A DNA stretch of 64,000 nucleotides, taken from IMG/VR virus record IMGVR_UViG_3300050581_000202; one strand, given 5' to 3'. The position numbers were made by a program, and so were the translations under genes. The DNA comes from a virus. Its lineage: Duplodnaviria > Heunggongvirae > Uroviricota > Caudoviricetes. Positions 571 through 28,604 of the stretch are shown one piece after another. Every line of letters begins with the position of its first letter. Positions within the stretch are counted from its first letter, which is position 1. Below the pieces are notes generated by a model, which was given only the letters and a program-made list of their open reading frames with translations, was not told the DNA's origin and searched no databases.

Positions 571-809
571 CAGTAGCACTCCGGCCACGGTTCACCGTCT
601 TCGGGGTGGTGTTCTCCAGGCGTGCCGTGCCACGCCTCGCCATCTCCGCAGCAGTCGCACGCGGAAACGTCGTGGCAGGAATTGGCCGCGATCCAATCGA
701 GGATGATCTGGTGGTCGCCGGCTTCGTCGAAACGGTTCATTGTCTTGTCGTCCACCTGATGGAGGTTGAGAAAGCCGGTGCCGTCGCAGCGGGTGCAATG
801 GACGCTCAT
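570..809 (-). CDS. small Cys-rich zinc-finger protein (DnaJ-type CxxCxGxG motif)
   Basis: Internal Met of ORF 570..1046 gives MSVHCTRCDGTGFLNL...CDCCGDGEAWHG (79 aa). Its ATG at 807-809 overlaps the methylase stop (ATGA). The annotated N-terminal 80 aa of the long ORF are Arg/Pro-rich junk. Confidence 0.5.
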   Translation of the reverse strand: MSVHCTRCDGTGFLNLHQVDDKTMNRFDEAGDHQIILDWIAANSCHDVSACDCCGDGEAWHGTPGEHHPEDGEPWPECY

Positions 810-1558
810 TCGACCTCCCACAAGGCGCGATGGATGTACTCCGACCGCTTCATGCCGTGCTCTTCGACGATCTTGTCGCAGTAGCCCCGGTCGATCTCGA
901 TCAGGGTGCAGGGGTAGCCCAGCGGCCGGCAAACGCGGAGCGTCGTGCCCGTGCCGCCGAAGGGGTCTAGGACTGACTCGCCTTCTGGCGTGGTGAACTT
1001 CACGCACCGCTCGACCAATCCCTCGTTGAGTTGCGTCGGGTGCCAAGGGCGGCGTTGCTTGCTGTTGCCCACAACCCGCGTGAAATCGAACACGTCGCCG
1101 GGCACGCGGCCGCGCGGGTCAGCCCGCTTGTCGCCGTTCTCCTGCCGCCAACTTGGCACGCGGATCGCATCGGGACGCAGCGGGGCGTCAAGCCACCGCA
1201 GCCGCCAGAGCGGCCGGTGGTTGTTTCCCAGATCGTGGTGGCAATGCTGCCCGAAGGTGAAGGTCTGGACGCAGGGCTTGGCTTCCAAGCCGCTGTTCCG
1301 CCGGACGATCTCGGCCACGATGCGCCCGACCTCGAAGGTCCACTTCGCGTTGAAACTGAACCAAACGGTCTTGGCCCTGTGGACGAACAGATGCAGCCAG
1401 GTCTCCAGCAGGTTCACGTACTGGTGATCGGGCAGCTTGTCCTTGTAGGTTTCGTAGCCCAGGCCGATGTTGTCCGGCGGGTCCGCGAAGATCGTGGTCC
1501 ACGTCTGGCGGTTGCCGTTGAGGTAGTCGAGACAGTCGGCGTTAATCAGGGTGTGCAT
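806..1558 (-). CDS. DNA methyltransferase (N6-adenine/N4-cytosine, beta-class; motif IV then motif I)
   Basis: IFADPPDNIG (DPPY-type motif IV) near the N-terminus and DPFGGTGTT (FxGxG SAM-binding motif I) near the C-terminus. Confidence 0.85.
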   Translation of the reverse strand: MHTLINADCLDYLNGNRQTWTTIFADPPDNIGLGYETYKDKLPDHQYVNLLETWLHLFVHRAKTVWFSFNAKWTFEVGRIVAEIVRRNSGLEAKPCVQTFTFGQHCHHDLGNNHRPLWRLRWLDAPLRPDAIRVPSWRQENGDKRADPRGRVPGDVFDFTRVVGNSKQRRPWHPTQLNEGLVERCVKFTTPEGESVLDPFGGTGTTLRVCRPLGYPCTLIEIDRGYCDKIVEEHGMKRSEYIHRALWEVE

Positions 1559-2548: not shown

Positions 2549-3553
2549 TTAGTGAACGAACTTGGGACGGGTGACATCGTTGAACCAGTCGTCCAGGGCC
2601 GAGCCGCTGGACACCAGGCCCACGGACATTTCTTCTAGGACGGCGCAGCGGGCATCGCTGTCCTCCCGGCTGAGGCTGGAGAAGACGTGACCGCCGGTAA
2701 TGGCCTGCCAGCAGGTTGCCACCTTCGCGGCGAGCTTCTGCTGATAGTCGGCCTTGACCCGGCCGCGATGGCGGGCGTAGCGGAGCGTGGGCGGATTGCC
2801 CTCGCCCATGAACTTGGCGCACAACTCTTCGATCCCGAGCACGACATTCTCGTCGCCGATTTTCTCGCCCAAGAGCCAGCCGTAGAGGCAAAGCTGGTCA
2901 GCATATTCGTCGTTGCAGAACTCCATGTAGCCGGAATTGATTGTCAGGCCCCGGAAGTCCATCGCCTTGTACATGGCGTGCTCCTTGCCTTGGCTCCGGC
3001 TGGGCTTGTCCGAACGGAAGCCGTCCAGGCAGATCGCGTAGCCCTTCGACGGGCTGGCCCCGTACTTGGAGCAATAGCCCCGGACCTTCCAGTCGAAGAC
3101 GCATGAAACGCGGCCTTGGCCGAGGTCCAGAACGAAGCGGCAATCGGGCTTGCCGGTGAAGGGAACGCCTTCGATCAGGCCGTCCACCTTGAACTCGAAT
3201 CGCGGCGGCTCGATCGACTTGCGAAGCACGTCGAGCAGGTCGTCGTAGGCCCCCGCCAGCTTGTATGCCTTGAAGACCCGCTTGCCCGCCGTTAAGGCGA
3301 AGTCGCGGTTGTGCGGCTCCACCTGGCTCTCGAAGATCGCGCCGAACTCGAATTGGGCCGGCATGTCGCGGCCGAAAAGAGCGTGAGCCAGCATCGACTT
3401 GACATAGGCATCGAAGGCACTGCCCACAGCGGCCGGCTGCTCTTGCGGCAGGCGAGGCGCGGGGTGGTCGGCCAGATAGCGGATGTAGAATTCGTCCTGG
3501 TCCTTGTACCAGAGCGACATGGACGAATAGCTGAGGGACTTGGGGACTCGCAT
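2549..3553 (-). CDS. putative PD-(D/E)xK family nuclease (RecB/Cas4-like N-terminus)
   Basis: 334 aa. The N-terminal SLSYSSMSLWYKDQDEFY resembles the RecB-family exonuclease N-terminal motif, and internal D/E-x-K candidates are present (DWKVRG, DFRGL). Confidence 0.45.
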   Translation of the reverse strand: MRVPKSLSYSSMSLWYKDQDEFYIRYLADHPAPRLPQEQPAAVGSAFDAYVKSMLAHALFGRDMPAQFEFGAIFESQVEPHNRDFALTAGKRVFKAYKLAGAYDDLLDVLRKSIEPPRFEFKVDGLIEGVPFTGKPDCRFVLDLGQGRVSCVFDWKVRGYCSKYGASPSKGYAICLDGFRSDKPSRSQGKEHAMYKAMDFRGLTINSGYMEFCNDEYADQLCLYGWLLGEKIGDENVVLGIEELCAKFMGEGNPPTLRYARHRGRVKADYQQKLAAKVATCWQAITGGHVFSSLSREDSDARCAVLEEMSVGLVSSGSALDDWFNDVTRPKFVH

Positions 3554-3560
3554 GTCAGGC

Positions 3561-3776
3561 TCATGCTTGTTTGCCGAACGGAATCTGGTGCCAGACCCGT
3601 TCGTGGTAATAGAAGAGGATCAGCTTCACGATGAAGCAGATCAGCGTGAACACCGCACAGCCGCCCAGGTTGCCGAACGTGGCGTAGGCTAGGGCAAAGC
3701 AAACAAGATTAGAGAAGGTTTCCCAGGAGACGGCCTTGACGAAGGACCGCGTGGGCGTGCTCGGATCAGGCCGCAT
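3561..3776 (-). CDS. small membrane protein
   Basis: Internal Met of ORF 3561..3902: MRPDPSTP...FSNLVCFALAYATFGNLGGCAVFTLICFIVKLILFYY (71 aa, 2 TM). Confidence 0.3.
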   Translation of the reverse strand: MRPDPSTPTRSFVKAVSWETFSNLVCFALAYATFGNLGGCAVFTLICFIVKLILFYYHERVWHQIPFGKQA

Positions 3777-4827
3777 GGTAGTTGTCTCCGAGCAATTCAC
3801 GCCCAACCTTGTCACGAACGTGGCGTGCTTCATCAAGCGTCGGGTAGCGGCCCAAGCGATGCTTGACTCCGCAGAACATGATCTCCGGGTGATACCAACC
3901 ATCTTTGACCCAAATGCCTTTCACGCCGCTGGTGTTGTTCGACTGCTTCCCTCGGTTGTGCAAGTTGACGGCTCGCTCTGTGACGCGCAGGTTATCGCGG
4001 GTGTTGTTGAGCGGGTTGCGGTCGATATGATCGACTTGCACGGTCTCCGGGTCATACGGCAGGTTCATACGCACGACGACATCTTGGTGCATGTATCGCG
4101 TCATGCTTCGACCGGCGATTCTCACTTTGCGTTGGGCTCGCCACTTGTCGCTTCCTTGACCTCGCTGTCGTGCGTTGTTTTGCGGAGCGGCTGACCAGTT
4201 CCAACGGCTTAGGTAGGCATGGTCTTCCGGGCTAATAGAAGCGGTCAGGCCGTTCGAGATTGGTATGGTCCGTTTCCCGTATAGGGTGCCGTAGTCTAAA
4301 AACCGCCAGCGGTTGTAGGTATCAATAGGCGGCGGATCGGAAGCAACGTGCCGGACGTAGGCAATCACTTCGTCCCAAGTGCTGAACACATGCTGATGCG
4401 GCAGCGTCCCCCAGTACCAATCGGGTAGTGCGGCTTTGCCTTGTTCCATGTGGACGAGGATCGGCACCTTGCGGCGGTTGAGCAGCGCGATTTCCTCGTG
4501 TGTCCCAGTGGAGTAGACGTTCTTGTCAAGGTGAACGATGGCAAAATCACAGAGATCAGCGAGGCGCAAGTCGATGCAGCGGATCAACCGCATTTCGCGG
4601 GAAATTGTCTCGAAATCACCGCGTTTCTTCTGTTCGAGCCGACGTTGATGGTTTTCCAAGTCTTCACAGGCATAACCGGCTTGCATCGGCTTGGCACAGG
4701 GGTCCAAGAAGATCAGGTCCAGGTCGCGGAGCCGCTCCTTGATTTCATTGCGCCAGCCCGTGCCGAAGTCACTGGCGTTGTCGATAGGCCCAGACAAGTA
4801 GACGCGGTTGTAGAAGAGGCGATTCAC
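3766..4827 (-). CDS. nucleoside 2-deoxyribosyltransferase-like domain fused in frame to an HNH (HNH_3) endonuclease with a C-terminal AP2 domain
   Basis: The likely start is GTG at 4825-4827 overlapping the deoC stop (GTGA); the next ATG is at 4867-4869. N-domain: VYLSGPIDNA...GWRNEIKERL...DLIFLDP...DLCDFAIVHLDKNVYSTGTHEEIALLNRRKVPILV, a Rossmann-like NDT/DUF4406 pattern. C-domain: VQVDHIDRNPLNNTRDNLRV (HNH) followed by SGVKGIWVKDGWYHPEI...GRYPTLDEARHVRDKV (AP2). No stop and no Met lie between the domains. Confidence 0.6.
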   Translation of the reverse strand: MNRLFYNRVYLSGPIDNASDFGTGWRNEIKERLRDLDLIFLDPCAKPMQAGYACEDLENHQRRLEQKKRGDFETISREMRLIRCIDLRLADLCDFAIVHLDKNVYSTGTHEEIALLNRRKVPILVHMEQGKAALPDWYWGTLPHQHVFSTWDEVIAYVRHVASDPPPIDTYNRWRFLDYGTLYGKRTIPISNGLTASISPEDHAYLSRWNWSAAPQNNARQRGQGSDKWRAQRKVRIAGRSMTRYMHQDVVVRMNLPYDPETVQVDHIDRNPLNNTRDNLRVTERAVNLHNRGKQSNNTSGVKGIWVKDGWYHPEIMFCGVKHRLGRYPTLDEARHVRDKVGRELLGDNYHAA

Positions 4828-5472
4828 GGCAGCAACTCCTGGTAGCGGGACGAGCCGAGTCGAGTGCATCCCAGGTCCAAGTAGCGAGCGGCATCGGAAT
4901 AGGTCTTGATGCCGCCGCTGGCCTTGACTTGGGCCTCGCCATCGACGGCTACCAACATGGTCTTGACGGCTTCGGGCGTAGCCCCTCCGGGTCCGAAGCC
5001 GGTCGATGTCTTCACGAAGTCCACGCCACTCTTGACACACAGGCGGCAGGCTTCGTGGATTTGGTCCGGCGTGTAGTAGCACGCCTCCAAGATCGCCTTG
5101 ACCAACACGCCGCGCGGCCGGGCGGCCTTGACGATTGCGGCGATGTCCCAGAAGGCATCGTGTCGGCCGCTCTCAAGAAACCGGCCATAGTTGGCCACCA
5201 CGTCCAATTCCTTCGCTCCATAGTCCATCGCTGCTACGGCCTCGGCGTATTTGGCCTCGGGCAGCGTGTTTCCGTGAGGAAAGGCAATGACGGCGCACAC
5301 GTTGCCGTACAGGTCGCTCGCCATCGGCACCCAAGCCGGGGCAATGCAGACCGACTTGATCTGCCAGGCGACGGCCAGGGCACAAGCGGCTCGCACGTCG
5401 GCGGCCGTGGCGGTCGGCTTCAACACGGCCAAGTCCAGGGCAGCGGCAATCTGTTCGCGGGTGTAGCTCATA
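4824..5472 (-). CDS. deoC: deoxyribose-phosphate aldolase
   Basis: Start MSYTREQIAAALDLAVLKPTAT. DeoC signatures are SVCIAPAWV, ELDVVANYG, VKAILEACYYT, DFVKTSTGFGPGGAT and KASGGIKT. The upstream 50 aa of ORF 4824..5630 are Arg/Gly-rich junk. Confidence 0.8.
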
Positions 5473-5992
5473 GGCAGATCGAACCTTCCACTTCGTTGCC
5501 GAAGGCGTCCCAGCCGGGTCGGCGGGTGCGGGCGAACATTTCCAGGTAAGGGCCGGGAGACACCGACTCCACGAGCCGGTAGAACTCCTCGGGCTTCTCG
5601 CTGTGACGGCCTCGCGGCCAAGTGAACCATGTTCCGCCTGTCGGGCCGAAAGGATTGCCGTGGCGTGGCCCCTTGCGGCAGACCAGGACGTGCTCGCTAT
5701 TGCACTGAAAGCGGCCCACGCCCAGGCCGGGCTTGGCCCATGTAAGCATGTTCCACGGCTCGAAGTCCCAGGCCCGCGCCACCTCGTAGCCCCAATCGAC
5801 GTGCTGGTTCACCACCCACAGCCACAAATGGGCTTGCTTGGCGGCCGGCACCTTCAGGCTGCAAATGTCCCGCACGCTCATGGTCCGGTACTGCCGTTGC
5901 GGCGCGGCCTTGAAGGACGGGTGCCCCGCGTTGAGCGCCGGCGTCCAGGGCGGATCGGCGATGATCGTGCGGTAGTTACCGGCGGACGGCAT
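5468..5992 (-). CDS. MT-A70 family N6-adenine DNA methyltransferase
   Basis: IIADPPW (DPPW catalytic motif), HLWLWV, SEHVLVCRKG and HSEKPEE, which is the typical MT-A70 motif order. Confidence 0.8.
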   Translation of the reverse strand: MPSAGNYRTIIADPPWTPALNAGHPSFKAAPQRQYRTMSVRDICSLKVPAAKQAHLWLWVVNQHVDWGYEVARAWDFEPWNMLTWAKPGLGVGRFQCNSEHVLVCRKGPRHGNPFGPTGGTWFTWPRGRHSEKPEEFYRLVESVSPGPYLEMFARTRRPGWDAFGNEVEGSICL

Positions 5993-6476
5993 TACTTAGC
6001 TCTTGGAGTTTCTTCTCGCGGGCGTTGATATGGCTGTGGCCGAAGTAGGGCCAGTAGTCGTGCAGGGCTTCGTGCGCCAGCACAATGGCGGTTTCCTCGG
6101 GCGCGAAGTCGATCAACAGGCAAGTGTCGAGGGTCACGCCCGGACACCAGGGACAGTTGCAGCCGATGACCTTGCCTGCCCCGCCAGCGTTAATCACCGG
6201 CCCGGTCAGCGGCATGAACATCACGTCCCACGCGCCAACCTTGTGGTAGCGCCGAATCGTGTAATCCAAGACGCCTCGCAGATCGGGGTCGTCGCAGAAG
6301 GCCCGCATCAGCTTCAGGTGGGCGATGGAGCGGTCGAGATACCTCTGCTCGCCGCTGTGGTCGCCACTCAGGCTGTAGTACATGCCGCCAATGATCGGGA
6401 TGCTGAGTTGCACGACGAGCGAGTAGATCGCTACCCGCAGCGTCAGGCTTACCCAGTGGCGGAGTCGCAGTTTCAT
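5976..6476 (-). CDS. membrane-anchored putative zinc metallopeptidase (HExxH)
   Basis: An N-terminal TM (LTLRVAIYSLVVQLSIPIIGG) plus LAHEALHDYW (HExxH) and additional His/Cys residues. Confidence 0.45.
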   Translation of the reverse strand: MKLRLRHWVSLTLRVAIYSLVVQLSIPIIGGMYYSLSGDHSGEQRYLDRSIAHLKLMRAFCDDPDLRGVLDYTIRRYHKVGAWDVMFMPLTGPVINAGGAGKVIGCNCPWCPGVTLDTCLLIDFAPEETAIVLAHEALHDYWPYFGHSHINAREKKLQELSNAVRR

Positions 6477-6642
6477 CGGCGCGCAGTGCGAAACAGTTGA
6501 TGGTTGATAGCAAAGTGACTGGCTACTCTTTCACGTAGCCTTCGCGTTCGGCCCGGCCTTCTAGCTCGCCGGTGCCGAAGACCTCAGCCGGGTTGTAGGT
6601 TTCCCGGACGAAACCGAGAATGTTCCGTTCCGAGTACACCCA

Positions 6643-6789
6643 TCAGAACACTCCCTTCGCCTTGGCGACGATCGCCCCGATGAAGCAGATGCCGCAGACC
6701 GTGATAACGGCCACGACCGGCGGGCACGTCATGGTCACGACCACAGCACCGGCCAAGAGCGAAATCACGAGGGTCACGAGTCCGGCCAT
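6643..6789 (-). CDS. small membrane protein (48 aa)
   Basis: Not in the ORF track. Minus-strand ATG at 6787-6789 gives MAGLVTLVISLLAGAVVVTMTCPPVVAVITVCGICFIGAIVAKAKGVF*. It is strongly hydrophobic and fits exactly between the flanking genes. Confidence 0.3.
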   Translation of the reverse strand: MAGLVTLVISLLAGAVVVTMTCPPVVAVITVCGICFIGAIVAKAKGVF

Positions 6790-6790
6790 G

Positions 6791-7813
6791 TTATTCACCC
6801 TTCAAGCGTTTGATGGTTTGCAGATAGTGGCTCTCGCAGTTGCGGCAGTCCCGGCAGTAGGCCGAGTCGATGCTGCTGCACATGCTCACCAGCCGATTGC
6901 CGGCGTAACGGGACATGACCCAGCGCATGAACTCCTTGGTCGGACACCAGTAGGAATTGATGTGCCGCACGCGCCACTGGTAGCACTCGCCCTTGAAAAG
7001 CAGGTCGGCGGGCACCTGTGGCTCGTGGTCGTAGTAGGCCATGAAGGTAATCACCACCGGCACCTGGGCGGCGGTCCAGGCAGCCACCGCCTGATCCACC
7101 AGCCGCAGATTGGTTGCCGACGTGCGAAGGCGCACGAACATCAGGTTGGCGGCCGGCGAGTGCCAGTCGTCGCAGTGACGGTTCGGCATGGCGTAGCTGC
7201 CCTCTTGCTCCTCCTTGGGATTGGCCGTGAGCACGACGGGGCCGGGGAAATCGAAGCGGGGGATCGACGTGTTGAAGAAATAGCGCCGATACCGCTTGGC
7301 GGCCTCGATCACCAGGTCGCGTTGGTTGTTGCTGTCGTTGCCGCAATTCATCCGCACGATGCCGTCGCCCACGTCTTCGGGCGTCGGGACGTGTGGGCGG
7401 TCGATGGGCACGTAGTAGGCCCCCGGCCGATTGTAGAAACACTGGTTGCAGCCGATGGGGCATGGCCCGACCTGGGGAATGCAGTCGAAGAACGGCGTGC
7501 CTTCCTGTTTCGGGTTGCGTTTGAGTGCCGAGGGTCTCGCTGGCTTGCGCCGTGGGCCGGAATTGACTGAGGTGATCTCGTAGCAGGAGTCCGAGCGGTT
7601 GACGACCTTGTAGTCGCACTTGCCTTCCAGCCGAAGCTGCCGAAGGATACGATCCGGGGAGGCGGGGGCAATCTGTGTTCGGGCGGTGATGTAGTCATGC
7701 AAATCCTGGATGTAGAAACGCGGCTGCGCAGCCTGCCAGCGGTCTTGCACGAACCTTTCCACCAGATCGCCGATGTTGGCTTGGACACGCGATAGCTCTG
7801 CGGCTTGACTCAT
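6791..7813 (-). CDS. Fe-S protein with radical-SAM-like CxxxCxxC motif and a C-terminal Cys cluster
   Basis: 340 aa. Contains GPCPIGCNQCFYN (C-x3-C-x2-C) and a C-terminal CSSIDSAYCRDCRNCESHY (C-x7-C-x2-C-x2-C). The N-terminal ~110 aa are basic. Confidence 0.45.
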   Translation of the reverse strand: MSQAAELSRVQANIGDLVERFVQDRWQAAQPRFYIQDLHDYITARTQIAPASPDRILRQLRLEGKCDYKVVNRSDSCYEITSVNSGPRRKPARPSALKRNPKQEGTPFFDCIPQVGPCPIGCNQCFYNRPGAYYVPIDRPHVPTPEDVGDGIVRMNCGNDSNNQRDLVIEAAKRYRRYFFNTSIPRFDFPGPVVLTANPKEEQEGSYAMPNRHCDDWHSPAANLMFVRLRTSATNLRLVDQAVAAWTAAQVPVVITFMAYYDHEPQVPADLLFKGECYQWRVRHINSYWCPTKEFMRWVMSRYAGNRLVSMCSSIDSAYCRDCRNCESHYLQTIKRLKGE

Positions 7814-7919
7814 GGTGCGAACCTCAGTGGTCGGATCACTCCCTCAGAAATTGGCGAACAGGGCTTGCAGAAAGACGCCTTGCCGCCGTACTGGCGATAG
7901 GTTGTCGTGGGCGTTGCGG

Positions 7920-9062
7920 TCACTCGGCGTCTCTCCGTCGCCAATACCGAGCCTCTTTGGGAACGCCGTCATCGGTCAGTTCGCGGTACTTGAACGTGAC
8001 CGTCTGGCCCTTCTTGAATTGCTTGCCTTCGACCCAATAAGGAGTGTCGATGCCGGGGTTGTTGATGGCCCAATCGCGGGCCATTGGGTCGGCGAATTCC
8101 CGCTCGGTGTCGGTCAGGCCCGCCAGTTCCAATCGCTTGCCTTGGTAGTCCACGATCAGGGCACCGATCCTTCCCAAGAGCCGGCTGCCTTTGGCAGTCT
8201 CACGTCCGCTGGTGAAGCCCGTGACGCGGGCCTCTGCGTCCTGGAACGGCTTGTACTTGAGAATGGACCTGTGGCGTTTCGGCGTCCAAATGGAGTCAGG
8301 ATTGCGAATGACCACGCCTTCGCCGCCCTGATCCAGGACTCGTCCCAGGTACGCTTCCACCTGGTCGCCGGCCGCATCGGGAACGTCGATCAGCTTCGTC
8401 TGCGGATGGAGGTAGCAGACCGAGGCGTCGGTGTTCTCCAAGGCCGTATTGAGGATGGCCAATTCCTTGCCGAAGGGCTGGCCGGGTTGCAGAAAGCGGA
8501 AGTCGTCGCCAAGGCAGCGCTTCGGATGGGGCACGCCCTCGAATCGCTCGCCTCGGGAGTTGAGCCGCTGTCTGATCCACGCCTCGATGGTGAAGTAATC
8601 GACGTTGCAGACCATATTGGCGTTCTTGATCTGCCCGGTGCCAAAGACGCATCCGAGTGGCGGGCTGGAATAGACGGCGAAGACGATCTTGTCGAAGCGG
8701 TCGTCGGGTGTGTCGCCGCCGCAGATCGACCGGCAGAGTTGGAACTTGCCCCGTCCCGCCCACAATTCGCCATCCAAGGGACAGCAGGGAAGCTGATTGA
8801 GCCACCAGTCCGGGGCCATGATAGGATTGCCGTAGCGGCTCCACAGCCCGGTCGCTACGGGCTTGATCTTCGCCTTCTTCTGACCCGTCTTGGGGTCGAT
8901 GATCGAGGCCCAGGGCACCTCCTCGGTGGGCAGGCCACGGGTCACGCCGCCGTCCCAGAAACAGCGGGTGCCATCCAGCTTTTCCGACACAAACCAGCCC
9001 GCCACGTTATGCTTGCGCGGGTCGTAATGATCGGCCAGTTGCAGAAATTCGCGTCGCGCCAT
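7920..9062 (-). CDS. ATP-dependent DNA ligase
   Basis: Start MARREFLQLADHY at the ATG 9060-9062. The KxDG adenylation motif is present (SEKLDGTRC), along with GEGVVIRNP and ILKYK. The upstream 46 codons of the ORF are Arg/Gly-rich junk. Confidence 0.8.
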   Translation of the reverse strand: MARREFLQLADHYDPRKHNVAGWFVSEKLDGTRCFWDGGVTRGLPTEEVPWASIIDPKTGQKKAKIKPVATGLWSRYGNPIMAPDWWLNQLPCCPLDGELWAGRGKFQLCRSICGGDTPDDRFDKIVFAVYSSPPLGCVFGTGQIKNANMVCNVDYFTIEAWIRQRLNSRGERFEGVPHPKRCLGDDFRFLQPGQPFGKELAILNTALENTDASVCYLHPQTKLIDVPDAAGDQVEAYLGRVLDQGGEGVVIRNPDSIWTPKRHRSILKYKPFQDAEARVTGFTSGRETAKGSRLLGRIGALIVDYQGKRLELAGLTDTEREFADPMARDWAINNPGIDTPYWVEGKQFKKGQTVTFKYRELTDDGVPKEARYWRRRDAE

Positions 9063-9229
9063 CAGTAACACCTGTCCGAAAGCAGGGATCGGAGGAGCAG
9101 TTCCACGTCGGCAGTCCGCCGCGTGCGGACCCGTCGCTCGACTGCCACGGGCCGGCTGTAGACCGTCAGGCCGGGCCACCACGCGGCCCGCTCCACCCAA
9201 TCAGCCGGAATGAAGTCAACGGCGTGCAT
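9063..9229 (-). CDS. small hypothetical protein (55 aa)
   Basis: Not in the ORF track. MHAVDFIPADWVERAAWWPGLTVYSRPVAVERRVRTRRTADVELLLRSLLSDRCY*. Its stop overlaps the ligase ATG as TGATG, and a GAGGTG RBS lies 9 nt upstream. Confidence 0.3.
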
Positions 9230-9253
9230 GTACGTGTCACCTCACAAGCTGCG

Positions 9254-9862
9254 TTAGTCTCTCCGCTGGGAGATCGTAAATCCGGGTGACTTCTGGAGTG
9301 CCGCCGCGAGTTTTTCCTCCAGATACAAGCGGGGGTCTAAAGCCCAAAGGTCATTCCAGGGCCTTGGGACGGTGATGGCGTGGCCACCGTTGGCCTCGAA
9401 CCGCTCGATGTTTTCGCCGTAGTCGTCGATCAGCAGGGAGTCGGGACGAGCGAAAAGGTGCTTCCGGGGCGTGATGGCGTACTGCCGGTGCATCCACTCG
9501 GGAAAGTGGTCGTGAATCCACTCCAGCTTTCCCGCCAGGCAGTCGGGGTCTTTCGTCGGCGAGGTGGCGATGCAGACGTTCTCGCGGCCAACGGCTTGCG
9601 CGCAGGCGTCCAAGAGCCAAGGGAAGAAGTCGGACTCCGGCACCTTGATCCAGACGGAGCGCGGGATCGACGCCCAGAGCGTGGCCGGGGTGTAGCGCGG
9701 CCCACCCAACATGGCGTTGGCGGCGTCCGAGATATTGAAGCCATGCGCACGCGGATAGCGCGCATAGTCGCTCGGGCCGATGTTGCCGCCGACCGAGTGC
9801 AGCACGAACGGTGCCAGCGTATTGCACACGTCGTCCAAGTCCAGGAAGATGCGCCGGATCAT
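9254..9862 (-). CDS. HAD-superfamily 5'(3')-deoxyribonucleotidase-like protein
   Basis: N-terminal IFLDLDDVCN (HAD DxDxV motif, as in NT5C-type deoxynucleotidases), about 200 aa long. Confidence 0.55.
   Translation of the reverse strand: MIRRIFLDLDDVCNTLAPFVLHSVGGNIGPSDYARYPRAHGFNISDAANAMLGGPRYTPATLWASIPRSVWIKVPESDFFPWLLDACAQAVGRENVCIATSPTKDPDCLAGKLEWIHDHFPEWMHRQYAITPRKHLFARPDSLLIDDYGENIERFEANGGHAITVPRPWNDLWALDPRLYLEEKLAAALQKSPGFTISQRRD
9258..9300 (-). repeat. conserved ~42-bp element, copy 2
   Basis: TCTCTCCGCTGGGAGATCG-N13-CTTCTGGAGTG. Overlaps the last 14 codons of the nucleotidase gene and lies ~29 nt upstream of the small ORF start at 9229. Confidence 0.8.
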
Positions 9863-10542
9863 TCGTTGCGCAGGGCCTCCAGCTTGCGCTGCACGCGGGC
9901 GTCAATTTGCTTGGACATCCGTTGCACGGCCATGCGGGATTTGCCAATGGCGGTCCCAATCTCAACGAGCGTGTGGCCCGCTTCCCGCATGGCAACAAGC
10001 GTCCGCTCGTCTTCACCGGCGCAACACGAGTCGATCAGATCGCGGATTTCCAGTTCCTCTTGGTAGGAGGGAACCTCGAACCGCTCGGGGATGGCGTTGC
10101 AGACCTCGGGTGCTTCAAGCTCTTGACCATTCGCACGGGCGCGATACTTGGAACGAGCAGGCAGCCGGATGGTGTGTTCTGCGTCAACCAATTCTCCAAG
10201 TTCACGATTGATCCACATGCCAATGAAATCAGTTGGCGCAACGGGATCAGTGTTGCGCGGCCCCTCGCCGCGGGCCATCTTGTTGACCGCTTTGACCAGG
10301 CCGACGCATCCGGCGCTGACCAAATCATCGCGGAGATGTGCAATACTTGGGAACGAGCGGATGAAGGCTTCCACCTTCGAGAGGACCAACGGCATGTTGC
10401 CGCTAATCATGGTCTCTCGGGCCTTCTTGTCGCCGGCCGCAACGCGCGGGTGCAAGTCGGCGTTCTTCTCAGCCGTCCATGTCTCGCTGTTGGTCGCACG
10501 GTGCAGACCGGCAACTAGCTTTTCGTTGTACTGGTTACTCAC
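9859..10542 (-). CDS. sigma-70 family (ECF-like) RNA polymerase sigma factor
   Basis: Region 2 is DLHPRVAAGDKKARETMISGNMPLVLSKV...LVSAGCVGLVKAVNKM; the region 4 HTH is LVEIGTAIGKSRMAVQRMSKQ. The likely GTG start at 10540-10542 overlaps the upstream stop. The Ala/Thr/Pro-rich N-terminal 54 codons of the ORF were rejected. Confidence 0.7.
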   Translation of the reverse strand: MSNQYNEKLVAGLHRATNSETWTAEKNADLHPRVAAGDKKARETMISGNMPLVLSKVEAFIRSFPSIAHLRDDLVSAGCVGLVKAVNKMARGEGPRNTDPVAPTDFIGMWINRELGELVDAEHTIRLPARSKYRARANGQELEAPEVCNAIPERFEVPSYQEELEIRDLIDSCCAGEDERTLVAMREAGHTLVEIGTAIGKSRMAVQRMSKQIDARVQRKLEALRNE

Positions 10543-11032
10543 GGGTGCGCTCTCCAACGGGGTCAATCCGCCAGGCACAGCGGGTGTAGAACTGGTGGGC
10601 CTCGCAGGCGAGGCGGGAGTAGTCGTAGACCGACCCCTTGGGGTCGCAGATGCGCCCGTGGTCGTAGGCGACAACATGGCCGAAGCGCGCGCCGCGGCCG
10701 TCAATCACGCCACGACTCGCCCGGATCGTCTCCTCGAACCGCCGCCAGTTGTTGTTCGCATAGAGCACCGTCTTGTGCGGCCCACCTTCCGTGGGTTGCA
10801 GGACGGGGAACAGTTCCACCGGCGTGACGGCGAACCCGCGGGCCAGGGCGACTTGGATTGGCTCTTGGATGTGGAAGCACCGCCGGCGCAGCGGCTCGGA
10901 CAGACTGGGGAAGACGATCTCGCTGCCGTCGTGGCCAATGGCCGCGAGCAGATCGGCGACGGGCATATCCAAGGCCATTGCGAAGGCCAGAGGCATACAC
11001 ATCCACGGCTCGGGACGTTGTTGTAGTTCCAT
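10535..11032 (-). CDS. hypothetical protein (possible papain-like Cys/His peptidase)
   Basis: 165 aa with protein-like composition. Has an N-terminal Cys (WMCMPLAFAM) and a C-terminal His (FGHVVAYDHG). Confidence 0.3.
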   Translation of the reverse strand: MELQQRPEPWMCMPLAFAMALDMPVADLLAAIGHDGSEIVFPSLSEPLRRRCFHIQEPIQVALARGFAVTPVELFPVLQPTEGGPHKTVLYANNNWRRFEETIRASRGVIDGRGARFGHVVAYDHGRICDPKGSVYDYSRLACEAHQFYTRCAWRIDPVGERTRE

Positions 11033-11089
11033 AGGCGCAGGGTTTCTCCGCAGTTGGCGGTTCTTAGCGGGTTGAAGAGAGACGACGGG

Positions 11090-11488
11090 CTACCAGCCTT
11101 CGCGGTCTAGCTCGTCCAGCAGGGCGTCGATGTCAGGAACCTGACCCCAGGACGCCTTCCAGTAGTTGCGCCAGTTGGGCGGCGCGAACAGTTTGTCGTA
11201 TTCTTCTTGTGTCGCGGCCGTGAGTATCCAGATGCCGATGCCGAAGGCTTCCCATACGGGCCATTTCAGCTTTTGGGCCTTGGTGAAGCTGTAGTTGTTT
11301 CCCGGCCGCTTCACGTCGATCCATCGCTGGCCCCATTTGGGATGCGCGACGAACAGGTCGGGTATGCCCATCTGGAAGGCGTTGCCGATCATCCGCTCGA
11401 CGTGCCAGTCTCGAATCTTGAGGTAGGCCATCAGCGCTTGCTGGATGTGCCACTCTTGGCTGTGCTTTGGCCGGCGGATGTCACCCAC
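11090..11488 (-). CDS. VRR-NUC domain nuclease
   Basis: GIPDLFVAHPKWGQRWIDVKRPG...FTKAQKLK matches the VRR-NUC pattern. The likely GTG start at 11486-11488 overlaps the polA TAG (TAGTG); an alternative ATG is at 11429-11431. The ORF N-terminus is junk. Confidence 0.55.
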   Translation of the reverse strand: MGDIRRPKHSQEWHIQQALMAYLKIRDWHVERMIGNAFQMGIPDLFVAHPKWGQRWIDVKRPGNNYSFTKAQKLKWPVWEAFGIGIWILTAATQEEYDKLFAPPNWRNYWKASWGQVPDIDALLDELDREGW

Positions 11489-13989
11489 TACTTCATCATC
11501 TCCGGCGCTCTGATCTTGACCTGCGTGGCTCCCGACTTCTTCTCCGCCCAGTTGTTCATCCCCTCGCACCAGTCCATGCCGATCAGCGGCACGTAGGGAC
11601 GGAAATGCTCGACGGAATCCCGGACCACCTCCGTGACACTCGAAACCGTGTCCGGCCGGGTGACGCACATGATCTCGTCGTGGATATTCATGGGGGCGAC
11701 GTGCCAGTCATGGACGCCCACCGGCTGCAAGTCCCAAATCTTGCGCTGGACGTGCTTCGTGATTTCAGCGCCGGGCGATTGGATTTCGTGGTTTGCCGCT
11801 GCCCGCATGTTGGCCGCCTGCATCGAGAACGCCGCGCCGTAGAGGGCCGAGGAGACGGCACCGCCGGCCGTCTGCACGCGGTCGCGGCGGACGACCTTGA
11901 CTTTGCAGTCCTTCCAGTGCTTTGGTGTGTTGCGGGCCAAGTCGAAGATCGCGCGGGCGATGCGGTTCTCCAACGTGAAGTAGCGGCGGAATCCCAGCAT
12001 GGTCTCGGCGTAGTCGGCAGGGTCTTTCCAGACCACCTTCGTGCCGATGCCAGCCGGCTGGGTCATGGAGCAGAACGAATCGGCGACCCGCTTGCGCCAT
12101 CGCTTGACGCCCACGAACCGGCTACCAAAGTTCTCGATGGCCGCTTTGGCGACTTCTTCGCTAATGCCCAAACGGTTGACCAGCGTGCTATGGTCGCCGC
12201 CGTAGAGCATTGTGCCGAAGAAGCCCTGCTTGCCCTTCGTGTACATATCGTTGGTCGTGCTGCCGTCGCTCGACTTGACCTCTTCGTAAGTCGTGCCGGG
12301 GAAGATCGCCATGCCGAACAGGGCGTGAATCTTCCGGCCAGCAATCAACTCGGCGCGTAGTGCCTCGTCGTTGCACACGGCGTCGGCGATTGTCACCTCG
12401 AAGGAACTGAAGTCGCCGCCGCAGAGCAGATACCCGTTCCAGGCCAAGGGGAACGTCTGCCGGACTTCCTTGGTGTGCTTGATGCCCTGGGCATTCAGGC
12501 CATCCGCTCCGGCCATGCGGGACGAGAGGGCACCAATCACGACAAACGAGGCATGGAACTTGCCGGCCAAGAGCAACTTGTCGTATAGCTCGATTTCCTT
12601 GGCGGCGAACTTGACGCCGAGGATCTCCTTGGCACGGACGCCGGCCGGATGCCGGCCCACCTTCAGGCAGCCCGTGCCGCCGCAGCGTGCGCAATGCGCG
12701 TCGTCGCCCTGACACTTGCCGCACGGCTCTGACTCGCCGACGTAGCAGGCACCCTTGCACTCGGGGCAGGTGTCCGTTTCCTCGTGCAGATGGCCCTTGC
12801 CCTTGCACCTCGGGCACAACTGGCCGACCCCCCATTTGCTGATCGCTTCGAGGTTGGCCTTCTTCGTGGAGGTGTCGAGAATCAAGTGCTCGGTGCCATC
12901 CATCGCGGCCGTGATGTAGGCCCGGACCTCGCCCGGCTTGTTGATGTTCACCGGGCTGGCAGCCACCGTGGCTTCGGCCTTCGCCTTTAGGGCCTCGATC
13001 CCTTCGCGGTCGATCGTGAAGCCGTGCCAGCGGACGGCCGCCACCATGCAGGTCAGGGTCGAGTCGTTGTCCCCCGGCTCGGGGCAGCCGAAGTGCTTGT
13101 CCAGCGCCCGCGTATAAACGATGTCGTCGGTGGCGTACTCGCGGGCGTCCTGGCGGGTCGCCCAATGGTCAATGAACTGCCGAATCACGCCAGGCCAGGC
13201 ATACTTCGTGACTCTCTTGCCGGTGCCGCCCTCTTCGTCAGTTTCAATCGCCCAGCCCTTTTCGAGAGTGGACACGGCCAGGGCTGTGGGCGCATAGCCC
13301 AACTCGTAGGGTCGCCAGGCCGGGGGCGGCTCCACGTCCTTGTAGTGATACTTGGGCTTGAGCTTCAGGGCGTGCTCGGCGAGAAATTTGAGGCCGCCAG
13401 CCGGATTGAACTTCAAGACGACATCCTTGAACTCCGTGTCCAGATCGCCGAATGAATCGTGGCGGTCGAAGACCTGCCACTTGGGAGCTTCCGGGTCGGC
13501 CGAGCGGGCGAAGTAGATGTTGTCAAACTGGACGCGGGCCTCCAACTCGCGGGCCAGGGCATAGGCCAGCGCCGTGGGCACTCGCTTGATCCTGACATCC
13601 TCACGGGCCATGAGCGACTGGTAGGGGCCTTTGCGGCTGTGGAGCATCAGGTCCAGGACCGCTGCCGGCTTGATGCACGGGCCATCCTGTCCCTGGGGCT
13701 CCAGCATGGCGATCTCGTCGATGTGCTCTTGGGGTATCCAGTCCGGGTCACAGAGGCGGAAGGTCGTGTAGATTTTGCAGACGTGGAACCAGTCGAAGGA
13801 CAGGTTGAAGCCCACGACCGTGTGCTGGCATATCCACTCGATCAGCGCCAGCGTTTCGCGGATCGGCCTCCGCCAGACCTCGTACAGGACAACAGGGCCG
13901 TCTTCCACGGCGTACTGCAACAGCACCATCATGCTGTGCAACCCGCAGGTCTCCGTATCGAGGTAGAGTTTCGGCGGATGCTCGCTCAT
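11488..13989 (-). CDS. family A DNA polymerase (PolI-like, with 3'-5' exonuclease domain)
   Basis: LYLDTETCGL (Exo I), KGKQGFFGTMLYGG (motif B region) and NIHDEIMCV (motif C). A Cys-rich insertion is present: CPRCKGKGHLHEETDTCPECKG...CGKCQGDDAHCARCGGTGC. Confidence 0.9.
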   Translation of the reverse strand: MSEHPPKLYLDTETCGLHSMMVLLQYAVEDGPVVLYEVWRRPIRETLALIEWICQHTVVGFNLSFDWFHVCKIYTTFRLCDPDWIPQEHIDEIAMLEPQGQDGPCIKPAAVLDLMLHSRKGPYQSLMAREDVRIKRVPTALAYALARELEARVQFDNIYFARSADPEAPKWQVFDRHDSFGDLDTEFKDVVLKFNPAGGLKFLAEHALKLKPKYHYKDVEPPPAWRPYELGYAPTALAVSTLEKGWAIETDEEGGTGKRVTKYAWPGVIRQFIDHWATRQDAREYATDDIVYTRALDKHFGCPEPGDNDSTLTCMVAAVRWHGFTIDREGIEALKAKAEATVAASPVNINKPGEVRAYITAAMDGTEHLILDTSTKKANLEAISKWGVGQLCPRCKGKGHLHEETDTCPECKGACYVGESEPCGKCQGDDAHCARCGGTGCLKVGRHPAGVRAKEILGVKFAAKEIELYDKLLLAGKFHASFVVIGALSSRMAGADGLNAQGIKHTKEVRQTFPLAWNGYLLCGGDFSSFEVTIADAVCNDEALRAELIAGRKIHALFGMAIFPGTTYEEVKSSDGSTTNDMYTKGKQGFFGTMLYGGDHSTLVNRLGISEEVAKAAIENFGSRFVGVKRWRKRVADSFCSMTQPAGIGTKVVWKDPADYAETMLGFRRYFTLENRIARAIFDLARNTPKHWKDCKVKVVRRDRVQTAGGAVSSALYGAAFSMQAANMRAAANHEIQSPGAEITKHVQRKIWDLQPVGVHDWHVAPMNIHDEIMCVTRPDTVSSVTEVVRDSVEHFRPYVPLIGMDWCEGMNNWAEKKSGATQVKIRAPEMMK

Positions 13990-14349
13990 TCAGAAGACCT
14001 CGTAGGACCAACGGCTGCCATCTTCGTGCTTCCCGCTTACGCTGGCGGCCGTGACCGGCTTCGTGCGGTAGAGGCCATTGCGGAACCGTATTTCCAGGGT
14101 GAGCCCTTTGCCGATCCAGGAGGGGATCGGTGCTGCCGGACTCGACCAATGGAAGCCGTGAAGCACTTGCCCCACGGTGGCAATCCGCAGTGCCGGATCG
14201 CTGGAACTGATCTCCACAATGCCGTGGATCGGGTACATGACCCGCATCTCATAGAGATAGGGGTCAGCCTCCAAGAGGATGGTGGCATCCGCCTTCAGTT
14301 TGCGTATGTCGATCCCCGGCTCAGCCGGCGGCTTGATCGGCGTGCTCAT
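13990..14349 (-). CDS. hypothetical protein
   Basis: Start MSTPIKPPAEPG (ATG 14347-14349), 7 nt after the ParB-like stop. 119 aa. Its stop abuts the polA ATG (TGAATG). Confidence 0.4.
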   Translation of the reverse strand: MSTPIKPPAEPGIDIRKLKADATILLEADPYLYEMRVMYPIHGIVEISSSDPALRIATVGQVLHGFHWSSPAAPIPSWIGKGLTLEIRFRNGLYRTKPVTAASVSGKHEDGSRWSYEVF

Positions 14350-25565: not shown

Positions 25566-25587
25566 CGGTGCATCCGCGTCATACGTT

Positions 25588-25672
25588 GACACCTATACAA
25601 GACTGCCAAAGTCCCGTTTTTTCCCAACATTTCTGGGAAACTGCGAGCTTTTGGCAGTCTTGTATAGGTGTC
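25588..25672. promoter_or_regulatory. 24-bp near-perfect inverted repeat with a nested palindrome, in the divergent ParB-like / primase-helicase intergenic region
   Basis: GACACCTATACAAGACTGCCAAAG (25588-25611) and CTTTTGGCAGTCTTGTATAGGTGTC (25648-25672) are reverse complements with a single T indel. The 36-nt spacer contains TTCCCAACATTTCTGGGAA (TTCCCA-N7-TGGGAA). Confidence 0.7.
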
Positions 25673-28425: not shown

Positions 28426-28604
28426 TCCTTCGCATTTACCGTTCCGCCGGCTTCCTTTCCCGCTCCGTGTTGCGGGCCGAGTTCGTCGCCGAAGTTGAAG
28501 TAGACGAGCGGCCGGAAGACGAAGCGGCCTTCGCCGACGAGTACGGCGGCGACATCGTTGACGTTGCACCCACTGATTCAGAGAGCCTCGGAGAAGATCC
28601 ATGA
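28422..28604 (+). CDS. small acidic protein (60 aa)
   Basis: MILRIYRSAGFLSRSVLRAEFVAEVEVDERPEDEAAFADEYGGDIVDVAPTDSESLGEDP. ATGA overlaps at both ends (primase stop and next gene start). Confidence 0.35.
   Translation: MILRIYRSAGFLSRSVLRAEFVAEVEVDERPEDEAAFADEYGGDIVDVAPTDSESLGEDP

Follow-up and report, generated by a model that had tools for sequence, protein, structure and literature searches.

A conserved DeoC and NDT-like gene pair in the replication region of a Planctomycetota phage, a putative route for deoxynucleotide disposal

DmtZ, a phage enzyme of the NDT superfamily, belongs with DutZ/DUF5664 to the PurZ0 Z-genome phages (Gordonia phage Ghobes, Arthrobacter phage Wayne; Nucleic Acids Res 2026, PMC12884076). 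Like DNPH1, DmtZ converts dNMP to a free base and 2-deoxyribose-5-phosphate (dR5P); it also transfers dR5P to 2-aminoadenine, thus having both hydrolase and transferase activity, and the in vitro assay of this enzyme used DeoC to consume the dR5P product (PMC12884076). The Asp/Asn by which nucleoside transferases hold the 5'-OH is missing from dNMP hydrolases, and the standalone DUF5664 protein of phage Wayne hydrolyses dATP and dGTP (PMC12884076). Our analysis concerns a window of 64,000 nucleotides from a phage whose host is Planctomycetota and which has no relative in culture. Here, a DeoC gene and an NDT-like gene sit among the phage DNA-replication genes, and the functional core of the region is best explained as this two-gene unit rather than as a seven-gene pathway.

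The initial annotation had listed DeoC, an NDT-like domain at the N-terminus of the 3766-4827 ORF, an HAD deoxyribonucleotidase, a PD-(D/E)xK nuclease, a radical-SAM-like CxxxCxxC protein with a second Cys cluster, methyltransferases, and a DUF5664-like domain on the other strand. This gene set is real and almost all of the assignments stand. A coordinate check of the window placed every listed gene where it had been reported and on the reported strand, with two corrections: DeoC ends at 5471 rather than 5472, and the methyltransferase at 806-1558 carries the motif DPPD instead of DPPY.

DeoC (4824-5471, minus strand), a deoxyribose-phosphate aldolase of 215 aa, scored 193.4 bits against the TIGR00126 equivalog (cut-off 117.3) and matched the DERA structure PDB 3ngj at 1e-43. 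Residues D90, K125, K154 (the Schiff-base Lys) and K183 were invariant among 28 phage-clade homologs of 59-93% identity, and the protein is a genuine member of the aldolase family under purifying selection. Because homologs of ~60% identity occupy the same phage synteny, DeoC is an old gene of the lineage and not a recent acquisition. No PHROG family was found for it, and 50,697 GenBank phage records contained no credible match, barring host-like fragments and one 735-kb megaphage.

The first 177 aa of the adjoining ORF (4297-4827, minus strand) adopt the NDT fold, and Tyr10, Asp86 and Glu112 make up a Tyr/Asp/Glu triad that is invariant, as are D16 and D94. The window protein scores under the Pfam thresholds, and its triad lines up with residues of DmtZ that have been validated by experiment, including the P-[IV]-D-x-A motif. 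The residue six before the catalytic Glu is S, T or A in 18/18 NDT-like members and never Asp. The putative activity of the domain is that of a dNMP N-glycosidase or a dR5P transferase. Its best fold matches are YtoQ and nucleoside transferases, with DNPH1 ranked 18th, and therefore nucleoside substrates are also conceivable for this enzyme. An HNH_3 homing-endonuclease domain (~aa 237-353; 3766-4117, minus strand; Pfam HNH_3 1.7e-6, phrog_99 2.3e-25) is fused in frame at the C-terminus; it was missing in loci L001-L008 and seen solely in loci with the same NDT allele class.

Adjacency of these two genes exceeds chance, since an NDT-like gene adjoins DeoC, within ~0.8 kb downstream, in 36 of 37 DeoC-anchored independent viral loci. 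Among 29 loci, the two genes overlap in 9 (gap of -4 nt) and are spaced 5-26 nt apart in 12. NDT-like genes were found without an intact DeoC in several loci (L031, L005/L014) and the reverse only in L127, a pattern consistent with DeoC working at a step after the NDT-like product. The NDT-like gene is followed in 27/30 loci by the gene for a small DUF2061 membrane protein (3561-3776, minus strand; 71 aa from an internal ATG; Pfam DUF2061 4.5e-10), and tblastn matches to the long form of this ORF start at aa 39-43. Synteny inside one phage clade is in part vertical inheritance and, taken alone, no proof of functional coupling.

The reading to which we give about even chances is that the pair edits or sanitises the nucleotide pool, as a dNMP N-glycosidase followed by an aldolase. 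The NDT-like enzyme would cut the N-glycosidic bond of a dNMP via Tyr10/Asp86/Glu112, yielding base and dR5P, and DeoC would then cleave dR5P to glyceraldehyde-3-phosphate and acetaldehyde. Accumulation of dR5P is toxic; the DeoC step would clear this sugar phosphate, render disposal irreversible and feed carbon back to glycolysis. The DUF5664 dNTP diphosphatase could supply the route by converting dNTP to dNMP, NT5C would provide a parallel exit from dNMP to nucleoside, and the net effect would be editing of the dNTP/dNMP pool during replication, with the removal of one unwanted deoxynucleotide. Every nucleotide-metabolism gene identified in the phage is catabolic, which favours this reading. 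The conservation and translational coupling of the pair fit a dNMP N-glycosidase rather than a nucleoside-level NDT. The enzyme families, their catalytic residues and the coupling of DeoC to the NDT-like gene are shown; that the substrate is dNMP, which way flux runs and what the pair serves for are inferred. Destruction of dNMP looks wasteful for a replicating phage unless it is aimed at one unwanted nucleotide.

NT5C, an HAD-type 5'(3')-deoxyribonucleotidase of 202 aa (9254-9862, minus strand), exceeded the Pfam NT5C cut-off (34.2 versus 24.8 bits), matched phrog_2643 at 1e-10 and PDB 3bwv at 0.04, and carries the HAD motifs DLDDV(8) and IDD(145). It was present in 23/34 clade loci and missing in 11/34, L006/L007 among the loci lacking it, and is a variable, dispensable member of the module. 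The 141-aa DUF5664/dGTP_diPhyd_N protein (28601-29026, plus strand; PF18909, equivalent to DUF5664, 1.1e-19; phrog_801 'dATP/dGTP pyrophosphohydrolase' 1.6e-19), a putative dATP/dGTP diphosphatase, is encoded on the opposite strand, at a distance of 24 kb from DeoC and the NDT-like gene. DUF5664 is also found in phages with canonical genomes.

The MT-A70 DNA methyltransferase (5468-5992, minus strand; motif DPPW; Pfam MT-A70 2.4e-16, phrog_359 3.5e-37) lies immediately upstream of DeoC; it is deleted in L005/L014 and is near the family gene in only 14/62 loci. The N6/N4 DNA methyltransferase (806-1558, minus strand) matched Pfam N6_N4_Mtase at 2.2e-24. Methyltransferase genes differ between close relatives of the phage, and these enzymes are variable anti-restriction accessories. 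The RecB-like PD-(D/E)xK protein of 334 aa (2549-3553, minus strand) had no match in the HMM search of the window protein itself; PF12705 was matched by 8/15 of its orthologs (best 3.2e-5), and P136-D137, D154-W155-K156, Q220 and Y224 are invariant. It is a conserved recombination-type nuclease of the replication/recombination module, outside nucleotide metabolism. An ATP-dependent DNA ligase (7920-9065, minus strand; phrog_114 9.5e-36, NF006592 7.4e-49, DNA_ligase_OB_2 1e-9) lies between NT5C and the Fe-S protein.

Most of these genes had been described as coupled by ATGA or GTGA overlaps. Such overlaps were verified at three junctions, where the NT5C start meets the stop of a sigma-factor gene (ATGA), the DeoC start meets the MT-A70 stop (ATGA) and the DeoC stop meets the NDT-like start (GTGA), whereas three other junctions carry gaps of 106-190 nt. 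A single operon including all genes is plausible because they share one strand and no terminator signal rose above chance level.

The Fe-S protein (6791-7813, minus strand) combines a winged helix (aa 1-85) with a radical-SAM-like core (aa 96-340), in which the motifs CPIGCNQC (7439-7462) and NCGNDSN (7328-7348) and a C-terminal Cys cluster including CRDCRNC (6836-6856) were read on the minus strand. No Pfam match was obtained, Radical_SAM included, and its 227 representatives form an isolated family. It shares with small radical SAM enzymes (spore photoproduct lyase, QueE, PFL-activase, viperin, NifB core) a CxxxCxxC placed in the loop that follows the initial strand of a partial barrel, a similar size (~245 aa) and a GG(E/D)-like motif, here NCGNDSN, 33 residues past the cluster, and SGGDSN in the family member P0174; a further likeness is the auxiliary cluster to which the second group of Cys residues points. 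Unlike these enzymes, the protein lacks an aromatic residue in the stretch from the second to the third Cys, is helix-poor and, in the window's subclade, is fused to the winged helix; the hhalign alignment to E. coli PflA covers the Cys motif alone.

This protein is central to an alternative that we consider unlikely, in which the NDT-like enzyme mainly transfers dR5P from a canonical dNMP to a non-canonical base that the radical-SAM-like protein or the product of an unannotated ORF might make or mature, while DUF5664 and NT5C deplete the competing canonical nucleotide and DeoC clears dR5P from side reactions. The dual activity of DmtZ would be consistent with such a route, as would the alignment of D16 with the base-reading Asp12 of DmtZ, the ~8 replication-module ORFs without annotation, the contiguity of DeoC, the Fe-S gene and the NDT-like gene in the rearranged locus L035, the position of NT5C and DUF5664 directly after the Fe-S gene in L012/L013, and the few distant phages with DUF5664 or NDT-family genes beside it. 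However, the Fe-S family is mostly seen apart from DeoC and NDT-like genes, in phages whose GC content spans 26-62% and which have neither gene nearby (0/28 distant loci within 10 kb), the Fe-S gene lies within 6 kb of DeoC in only 25/37 DeoC-anchored loci, leaving 12 in which the pair has no Fe-S gene close by, and DeoC can be lost from the pair (L005/L014, L031). The Fe-S protein is a separate, widespread replication-module gene, genomically independent of DeoC/NDT. Among ~45 scanned ORFs, there was no match to PurZ, thymidylate-synthase-like, DpdA/Que (including QueCDE), kinase or glycosyltransferase families; PurZ/PurZ0, PurB and DutZ were not found by tblastn (E>0.01), nor were hydroxymethylase or deazaguanine genes. 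The DNA hypermodification pathway raised in the initial annotation is unsupported because PurZ, hydroxymethylase, deazaguanine and glycosyltransferase genes were not found; the Fe-S gene is independent and the methyltransferases are variable.

It is similarly improbable that there is no pathway at all, with independent morons gathered in the replication module and an adjacency that reflects the shared ancestry of one clade. The variation of NT5C, MT-A70 and other methyltransferases among close relatives and the independence of the Fe-S family would fit this explanation, and all loci carrying the pair fall in one broad clade, the megaphage homologs of DeoC and the NDT-like protein not being adjacent to one another. 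Yet the adjacency outlasts mosaicism: the distance from Fe-S gene to DeoC ranges from 1 to 6.8 kb, an NDT allele was swapped for one of 50% identity between neighbouring genes that are >88% identical, L035 is rearranged, DeoC divergence goes down to 45% identity, and stop/start overlaps occur in 9 loci.

Nucleoside-level salvage, in which NT5C dephosphorylates dNMPs from degraded host DNA, bases on deoxynucleosides are swapped or freed by the NDT-like enzyme and DeoC takes the sugar, is very doubtful. Confirmation of the NT5C and NDT folds speaks for it. The initial annotation's catabolic logic for deoxynucleotides is supported. Its chain from nucleotidase through nucleoside exchange to DeoC fails chemically, because DeoC requires dR5P, which a nucleoside-level NDT never makes; transfer or hydrolysis would give another nucleoside or deoxyribose. 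The ORFs scanned yielded no deoxyribokinase, phosphopentomutase or nucleoside phosphorylase, NT5C is dispensable in contrast to the near-invariant pair, and the 5'-OH-holding position is never Asp. An auxiliary metabolic function in which host DNA is broken down in bulk as a source of energy and carbon, without selectivity for a nucleotide, would suit enzymes that jointly turn dNTP/dNMP into glyceraldehyde-3-phosphate and acetaldehyde in a phage whose identified nucleotide-metabolism genes are all catabolic, with no anabolic ones among the ORFs scanned, but is most unlikely given that phages usually keep dNMPs for their own synthesis, that the pair has no link to an exonuclease system for degrading host DNA and that the NDT-family hydrolases characterised to date select for the base (PMC12884076).

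Pool editing by the pair can be set against several known systems. The phage DeoC has the same family (DERA, TIGR00126), length class and catalytic residues as DeoC of the bacterial deo operon, but it is found without deoA, deoB or deoD and is paired with an NDT-family gene, not with phosphorylases and a mutase. Phages drain dNMP through nucleotidases of the T5 Dmp type or the PBS2 dTMPase type, and NT5C resembles phage 5'-deoxyribonucleotidases (PHROG 2643) in its early/replication-region position and its capacity to drain dNMP, although it is dispensable among close relatives. DNPH1/Rcl (2'-deoxynucleoside 5'-phosphate N-hydrolase) and MilB (CMP/hmCMP hydrolase) are cellular and have no aldolase link, their pockets being compared by motif alone. 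With DmtZ the window protein shares NDT-superfamily membership in a phage, P-V/I-D-x-A after the Tyr, a triad of Tyr, Asn or Asp, and Glu, and, on the reading proposed here, the cleavage of dNMP to base and dR5P; both systems have a dNTP diphosphatase alongside and contain a DUF5664 protein, and DeoC is the natural consumer of the dR5P product. The hhalign comparison of the two proteins was not significant (probability 1.2%), the middle triad residue is Asp here and Asn in DmtZ, and the window phage has no PurZ0, PurB or DutZ. Unlike the DmtZ gene, the NDT-like gene is fused to an HNH endonuclease, and this phage, unlike the Z-phages, encodes its own DeoC in an operon with it.

Among the loci related to the window, deoxyribose-phosphate aldolase (DeoC, 4824-5471, minus strand) and the nucleoside 2-deoxyribosyltransferase-like (NDT-like) protein encoded by the following gene form the unit, whereas the Fe-S protein, the deoxyribonucleotidase NT5C and the methylases stand apart from it; this conclusion follows from gene adjacency in two independent locus samples, from the junctions between the two genes and from their pattern of loss. 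The first sample comprised 62 IMG/VR loci anchored on homologs of the Fe-S protein, 34 of which shared the synteny of the window in the order PolA, sigma factor, (NT5C), ligase, Fe-S gene, a variable stretch, DeoC, NDT-like gene, DUF2061, PD-(D/E)xK nuclease and methylase. Of these syntenic loci, 30 had the NDT-like gene, 29 had DeoC, 23 had NT5C and a smaller number had MT-A70. In the remaining 28 loci, which ranged from 26 to 62% G+C, the Fe-S gene had neither DeoC nor NT5C nor an NDT-like gene of the window family within 10 kb, and it neighbored generic genes of replication and nucleotide metabolism, namely DUF5664, DHH and SbcC-like genes (four each), NDT-family genes (two), RNR, dUTPase and RecA. 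In the second sample, of 37 DeoC-anchored loci, the NDT-like gene lay no more than ~0.8 kb downstream of DeoC in 36, and the Fe-S gene was within 6 kb in just 25. The two genes overlapped by 4 nt in nine loci and were separated by 5-26 nt in 12 others. DeoC was truncated in loci L005 and L014 and missing from L031, with the NDT-like gene kept in all three, and the sole viral locus with DeoC and no adjacent NDT-like gene (L127) had an NT5C-like gene instead, 1.6 kb farther downstream. The single pathway proposed in the initial annotation, which joined the pair to the nucleotidase, the Fe-S protein and the methyltransferases, is thus not sustained, given that the Fe-S gene occurs without either member of the pair in 28 loci and that NT5C and the methylases are variable.

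Several loci carried further genes. A ribosomal protein S21 homolog follows the ligase in L009 and L011 (5233-5403), and in L009 an AAA_28 kinase-like gene, a second Radical_SAM gene (weak Pfam match) and an RNA ligase are inserted between the Fe-S gene and DeoC (8889-12007). Beside the Fe-S, NT5C and DUF5664 genes of L012 and L013, a divergent block at 9946-14078 encodes a PfkB kinase, a cytidylyltransferase-like protein and two Glyco_transf_9 proteins; this arrangement is typical of heptose and LPS genes, and could represent flanking host DNA or a sugar pathway of the phage.

The product of 4824-5471 is a deoxyribose-phosphate aldolase by family, with a predicted conversion of deoxyribose-5-phosphate (dR5P) to glyceraldehyde-3-phosphate (G3P) and acetaldehyde. 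It scored 193.4 bits against the TIGR00126 equivalog (cut-off 117.3; residues 8-209 of 215 aligned), which upholds its first identification (only the end coordinate is corrected, from 5472 to 5471), and it matched solved DERA structures in the PDB down to 1e-43. The class I aldolase residues (Asp, Lys, Schiff-base Lys and Lys) align to 3ngj, and the corresponding D90 (ELDVV), K125 (VKAILE), K154 (VKTSTG) and K183 (VKASGG) are invariant across 28 phage homologs of 59-93% identity. The protein has no PHROG family. Recent uptake of DeoC from a host was rejected because homologs of ~60% identity occupy the same phage synteny, and in megaphages the homologs of the two proteins (LR756501 for DeoC, LR756511 for the NDT-like protein) proved unlinked.

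The partner gene (3766-4827, minus strand) encodes a fusion of an NDT-like domain (residues 1-177) with an HNH_3 homing endonuclease (residues ~237-350). As first proposed, its N-terminus has the Rossmann-like NDT fold; it also carries the Tyr/Asp/Glu triad, though its scores against PF05014 and PF15891 (16.2 and 15.2 bits) are under the gathering cut-offs of 28.8 and 30. Across the family, sub-threshold matches were obtained to PF05014 in 16 of 18 members and to PF15891 in 14 of 18 (best 2.4e-5); PDB searches returned noise only with the single sequence and, with the family profile, the NDT 2a0k at E=0.17 only. Tyr10, Asp16, Asp86, Asp94 and Glu112 are invariant, with the nucleophile Glu in a G-x-x-x-E context, and the position six residues ahead of E112 is occupied by S, T or A, never by Asp, in every one of the 18 members. 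We take this position to be Asp92 in the L. leichmannii NDT and Ser87 in rat DNPH1. The dNMP hydrolases lack the Asp or Asn residues with which nucleoside transferases bind the 5'-OH (PMC12884076), a rule that S, T or A fits at this putative position, the one of the two determinants that could be placed by sequence. Residues Y10, D16, D86 and E112 are also in register with Y6, D12, N77 and E103 of the phage NDT-family enzyme DmtZ, all four of them validated by mutation (PMC12884076), the profile alignment itself being not significant.

Two allele classes of the NDT-like gene were observed. For the HNH-fused allele of the window (3766-4827), identity to others of its class (L018, L019, L029, L030 and L042) is 80-89%, although their flanking genes are at only 51-86%; for the HNH-less alleles of L014-L017 it is just 45-51%, although their flanks are at 88-98%. 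This pattern looks like allele replacement driven by the homing endonuclease, with co-conversion. In 27 of 30 loci the next gene after the NDT-like one encodes a small DUF2061 membrane protein (window 3561-3776), which may belong to the DeoC-NDT unit.

Two other nucleotide-related genes of the initial annotation were confirmed. The 5'(3')-deoxyribonucleotidase NT5C (9254-9862) scored 34.2 bits in Pfam (cut-off 24.8) over an aligned span limited to residues 94-170, has HAD motifs I (D8-x-D10) and IV (D146-D147), and had as its best PDB match a putative deoxyribonucleotidase (3bwv, 0.04). The DUF5664 (dGTP_diPhyd_N) protein at 28601-29026 matched PF18909 with 70.6 bits (cut-off 27).

DeoC acts on dR5P. 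To our knowledge, pentose-5-phosphate release in the NDT superfamily is confined to the hydrolase/phosphodeoxyribosyl branch (DNPH1, MilB and DmtZ) and does not occur in nucleoside transferases. The catabolic logic of the enzyme chain first suggested for these genes stands, but since DeoC needs dR5P its nucleoside-level step would be replaced by a dNMP glycosidase. In such a route, DUF5664 would convert dNTP to dNMP, the NDT-like protein would hydrolyze dNMP to base and dR5P, and DeoC would pass the sugar phosphate on as G3P and acetaldehyde, with NT5C as a putative side exit. From the conserved coupling to DeoC we infer the NDT-like hydrolysis step, and the catabolic route through a dNMP glycosidase and DeoC seems to us about equally likely to be right or wrong. 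In classical deoC genetics dR5P build-up is toxic, which would be a reason to carry the aldolase along with the glycosidase. Scanning of the ORFs by Pfam and PHROGs revealed no anabolic nucleotide genes, and the nucleotide genes found in the phage are therefore all catabolic. The route could serve to exclude a canonical base or to sanitize methylated or damaged dNMPs. DmtZ, reported in 2026, converts dAMP to adenine and dR5P and can move dR5P onto 2-aminoadenine; its partner is a dATP/dGTP diphosphatase, either Dut-like or a standalone DUF5664, and its activity was measured in an assay coupled through E. coli DeoC (PMC12884076).

The Fe-S family is the most novel single item of the region. The window member (6791-7813, minus strand) had no sequence match in Pfam, PHROGs, NCBIfam or the PDB, none of its 642 homologs has a Pfam domain, and the family amounts to only 227 cluster-50 representatives among 1.84 billion proteins, with none in GenBank phages by tblastn with the Fe-S core. 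Its structural model (pLDDT 87.8) has a winged helix at the N-terminus, followed by a partial (beta/alpha) barrel in which the CxxxCxxC motif lies on the loop after beta-1. The C118-x3-C122-x2-C125 motif is invariant in the family. Six C-terminal cysteines are almost invariant, and so is an N-C-G-N-D-S-N motif at the end of the predicted beta-2; in the member P0174 this motif reads S-G-G-D-S-N and there resembles the GGE SAM-binding motif. The radical-SAM-like Cys motif and the C-terminal Cys cluster initially described were thus recovered, but a match to the superfamily in sequence was not: the window protein had no Pfam match at E<=10, PF04055 (Radical_SAM) included, P0174 reached Radical SAM at 0.047 only, alignment of the family to E. 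coli PflA by hhalign gave a probability of 0.9% with the Cys motif alone aligned, and an exhaustive HMM search with the family did not reach the radical SAM superfamily. A fold search of BFVD yielded nothing at E<=1e-3; its top viral match was a Campylobacter-phage radical SAM protein at 8e-3. From the fold, the position of the cluster and the N-C-G-N-D-S-N motif, and despite these negative sequence comparisons, our best guess is a divergent two-cluster radical SAM enzyme.

Another family member, P0150, contains a ~350-aa intein with HNH_3 between ...ARLN and CGNDSNN..., exactly at this motif (window 7328-7348); inteins usually occupy active-site motifs of essential replication enzymes. The C-terminal extension of P0174 (residues ~250-381) contains segments that look NDT-like by eye (VFLISPVR...ADEVHIIWD...SAGSKFDLG). 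Its identification as an NDT/DUF4406-type Rossmann domain, and hence as a possible Rosetta-stone fusion, was rejected and not used as evidence because neither a phmmer search of the PDB nor an hhalign comparison with the NDT-like family gave a match.

The same genes had first been read as a possible hypermodification pathway. Some evidence would be consistent with DNA hypermodification by these phages: DmtZ provides a precedent for NDT-family transfer of dR5P, the DeoC, Fe-S and NDT-like genes are contiguous in locus L035, NT5C and DUF5664 directly follow the Fe-S gene in L012 and L013, and ~8 ORFs are unannotated. However, no known modification-system gene was found in the ~45 ORFs scanned. 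Pfam and PHROGs searches of these ORFs, which left ~8 without any match, detected no thymidylate-synthase-like hydroxymethylase, no deazaguanine genes (DpdA/QueC/D/E), no 5-HMUDK or other kinase families and no DNA glycosyltransferase, and we consider hypermodification improbable. In its most elaborate form, which we view as unlikely, the widespread Planctomycetes phage clade would swap or decorate one DNA base by an undescribed route. An NDT-like dR5P transferase, working as DmtZ does, would take dR5P from a canonical dNMP and join it to a non-canonical base; the canonical nucleotide displaced in this way would be removed by DeoC, NT5C and DUF5664; and the orphan winged-helix/radical-SAM-like Fe-S enzyme would produce or mature the new base, or else act on it within DNA. 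A Z-genome (2-aminoadenine), an idea prompted by the presence of DUF5664 and the NDT-like protein, was rejected because PurZ0, PurB and DutZ were not found, with no Adenylsucc_synt match for PurZ/PurZ0 in the ~45 ORFs and tblastn of Ghobes PurZ0, PurB and DutZ yielding E>0.01 only.

Every gene of the initial list is present, with minor corrections. The PD-(D/E)xK nuclease at 2549-3553 had no HMM match itself and its profile gave only noise against the PDB; its assignment relies on residues P136-D137, D154-W-K156, Q220 and Y224 (PD ... (D/E)xK ... QxxxY), conserved without exception in 15 orthologs (42-89% identity), and on sub-threshold PF12705 matches in eight of these 15 (best 3.2e-5). The MT-A70 methyltransferase (60.6 bits, above the Pfam cut-off) has DPPW as motif IV, and the protein at 806-1558 is an N6_N4 methyltransferase (87.1 bits, likewise above its cut-off) in which the motif reads DPPD instead of the DPPY first given. 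The translational overlaps were also verified, with ATGA at the sigma/NT5C and MT-A70/DeoC junctions and GTGA at DeoC/NDT-like; a promoter and terminator scan of the region gave counts at or under chance. Between the Fe-S and MT-A70 genes (5976-6476) lies a conserved 166-aa protein with an N-terminal hydrophobic helix and a HEALH (HExxH) motif, which had no family match in HMM searches and may be a membrane-anchored metallopeptidase. A VRR-NUC-like motif (GIPDLFV...WIDVKRPG) was seen by eye at 11090-11500, and PolA (11488-13989) has an insertion at 12667-12816 (residues 392-441) of four CxxCxGxG-like repeats (CPRCKGKG...CPECKGAC...CGKCQG...CARCGGTGC) resembling a DnaJ-type zinc finger.

HMM annotation of the window (~62% G+C) identified a P22-like coat protein and a gpA-type large terminase, together with endonuclease VII, a family A polymerase, helicase, a primase-like protein and ligase; a sigma-70-like factor (9859-10704) and ParB-like proteins (14357-15289 and 24636-25592) are also encoded. 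By megablast, the region had no relative at the nucleotide level in 50,697 GenBank phages, and the polymerase was less than 27% identical to all GenBank phage polymerases. Close relatives occur among IMG/VR viral contigs 57-146 kb long. The host phylum is Planctomycetota because prophage-like relatives occur in Planctomycetaceae and Thermoguttaceae MAGs, one of them on a 1.07-Mb contig, and at least some members of the clade appear to integrate. In L006/L078, from a Thermoguttaceae MAG (JAXGPP010000005.1, ~10.9-12.6 kb), the HExxH gene, MT-A70 and DeoC show identities of only 41-51% and are missing from the gene calls, and numerous phage genes of L077, from the Planctomycetaceae MAG contig CAWBLA010000006.1, are broken into pieces; this damage could reflect decaying prophages or long-read indel errors.

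We know of almost no characterized phages of Planctomycetota, and the anchoring of both the DeoC-NDT pair and the Fe-S family in a phage group of this phylum gives these loci value as a resource. The Fe-S family, strongly conserved and found in the replication modules of highly diverse uncultured phages, is a promising place to look for new chemistry on DNA or nucleotides. The pair would supply the phage with a full route from dNTP to glycolysis, points to some nucleotide that these phages must dispose of, and constitutes a ready-made coupled assay. Phages are known to control the deoxynucleotide pool through dCTPase, DatZ/MazZ and, most recently, DmtZ. The literature searched contained no description of a phage deoxyribose-phosphate aldolase joined to an NDT-family enzyme, and the DeoC-NDT pair is a new variation on this manipulation of the nucleotide pool by phages.
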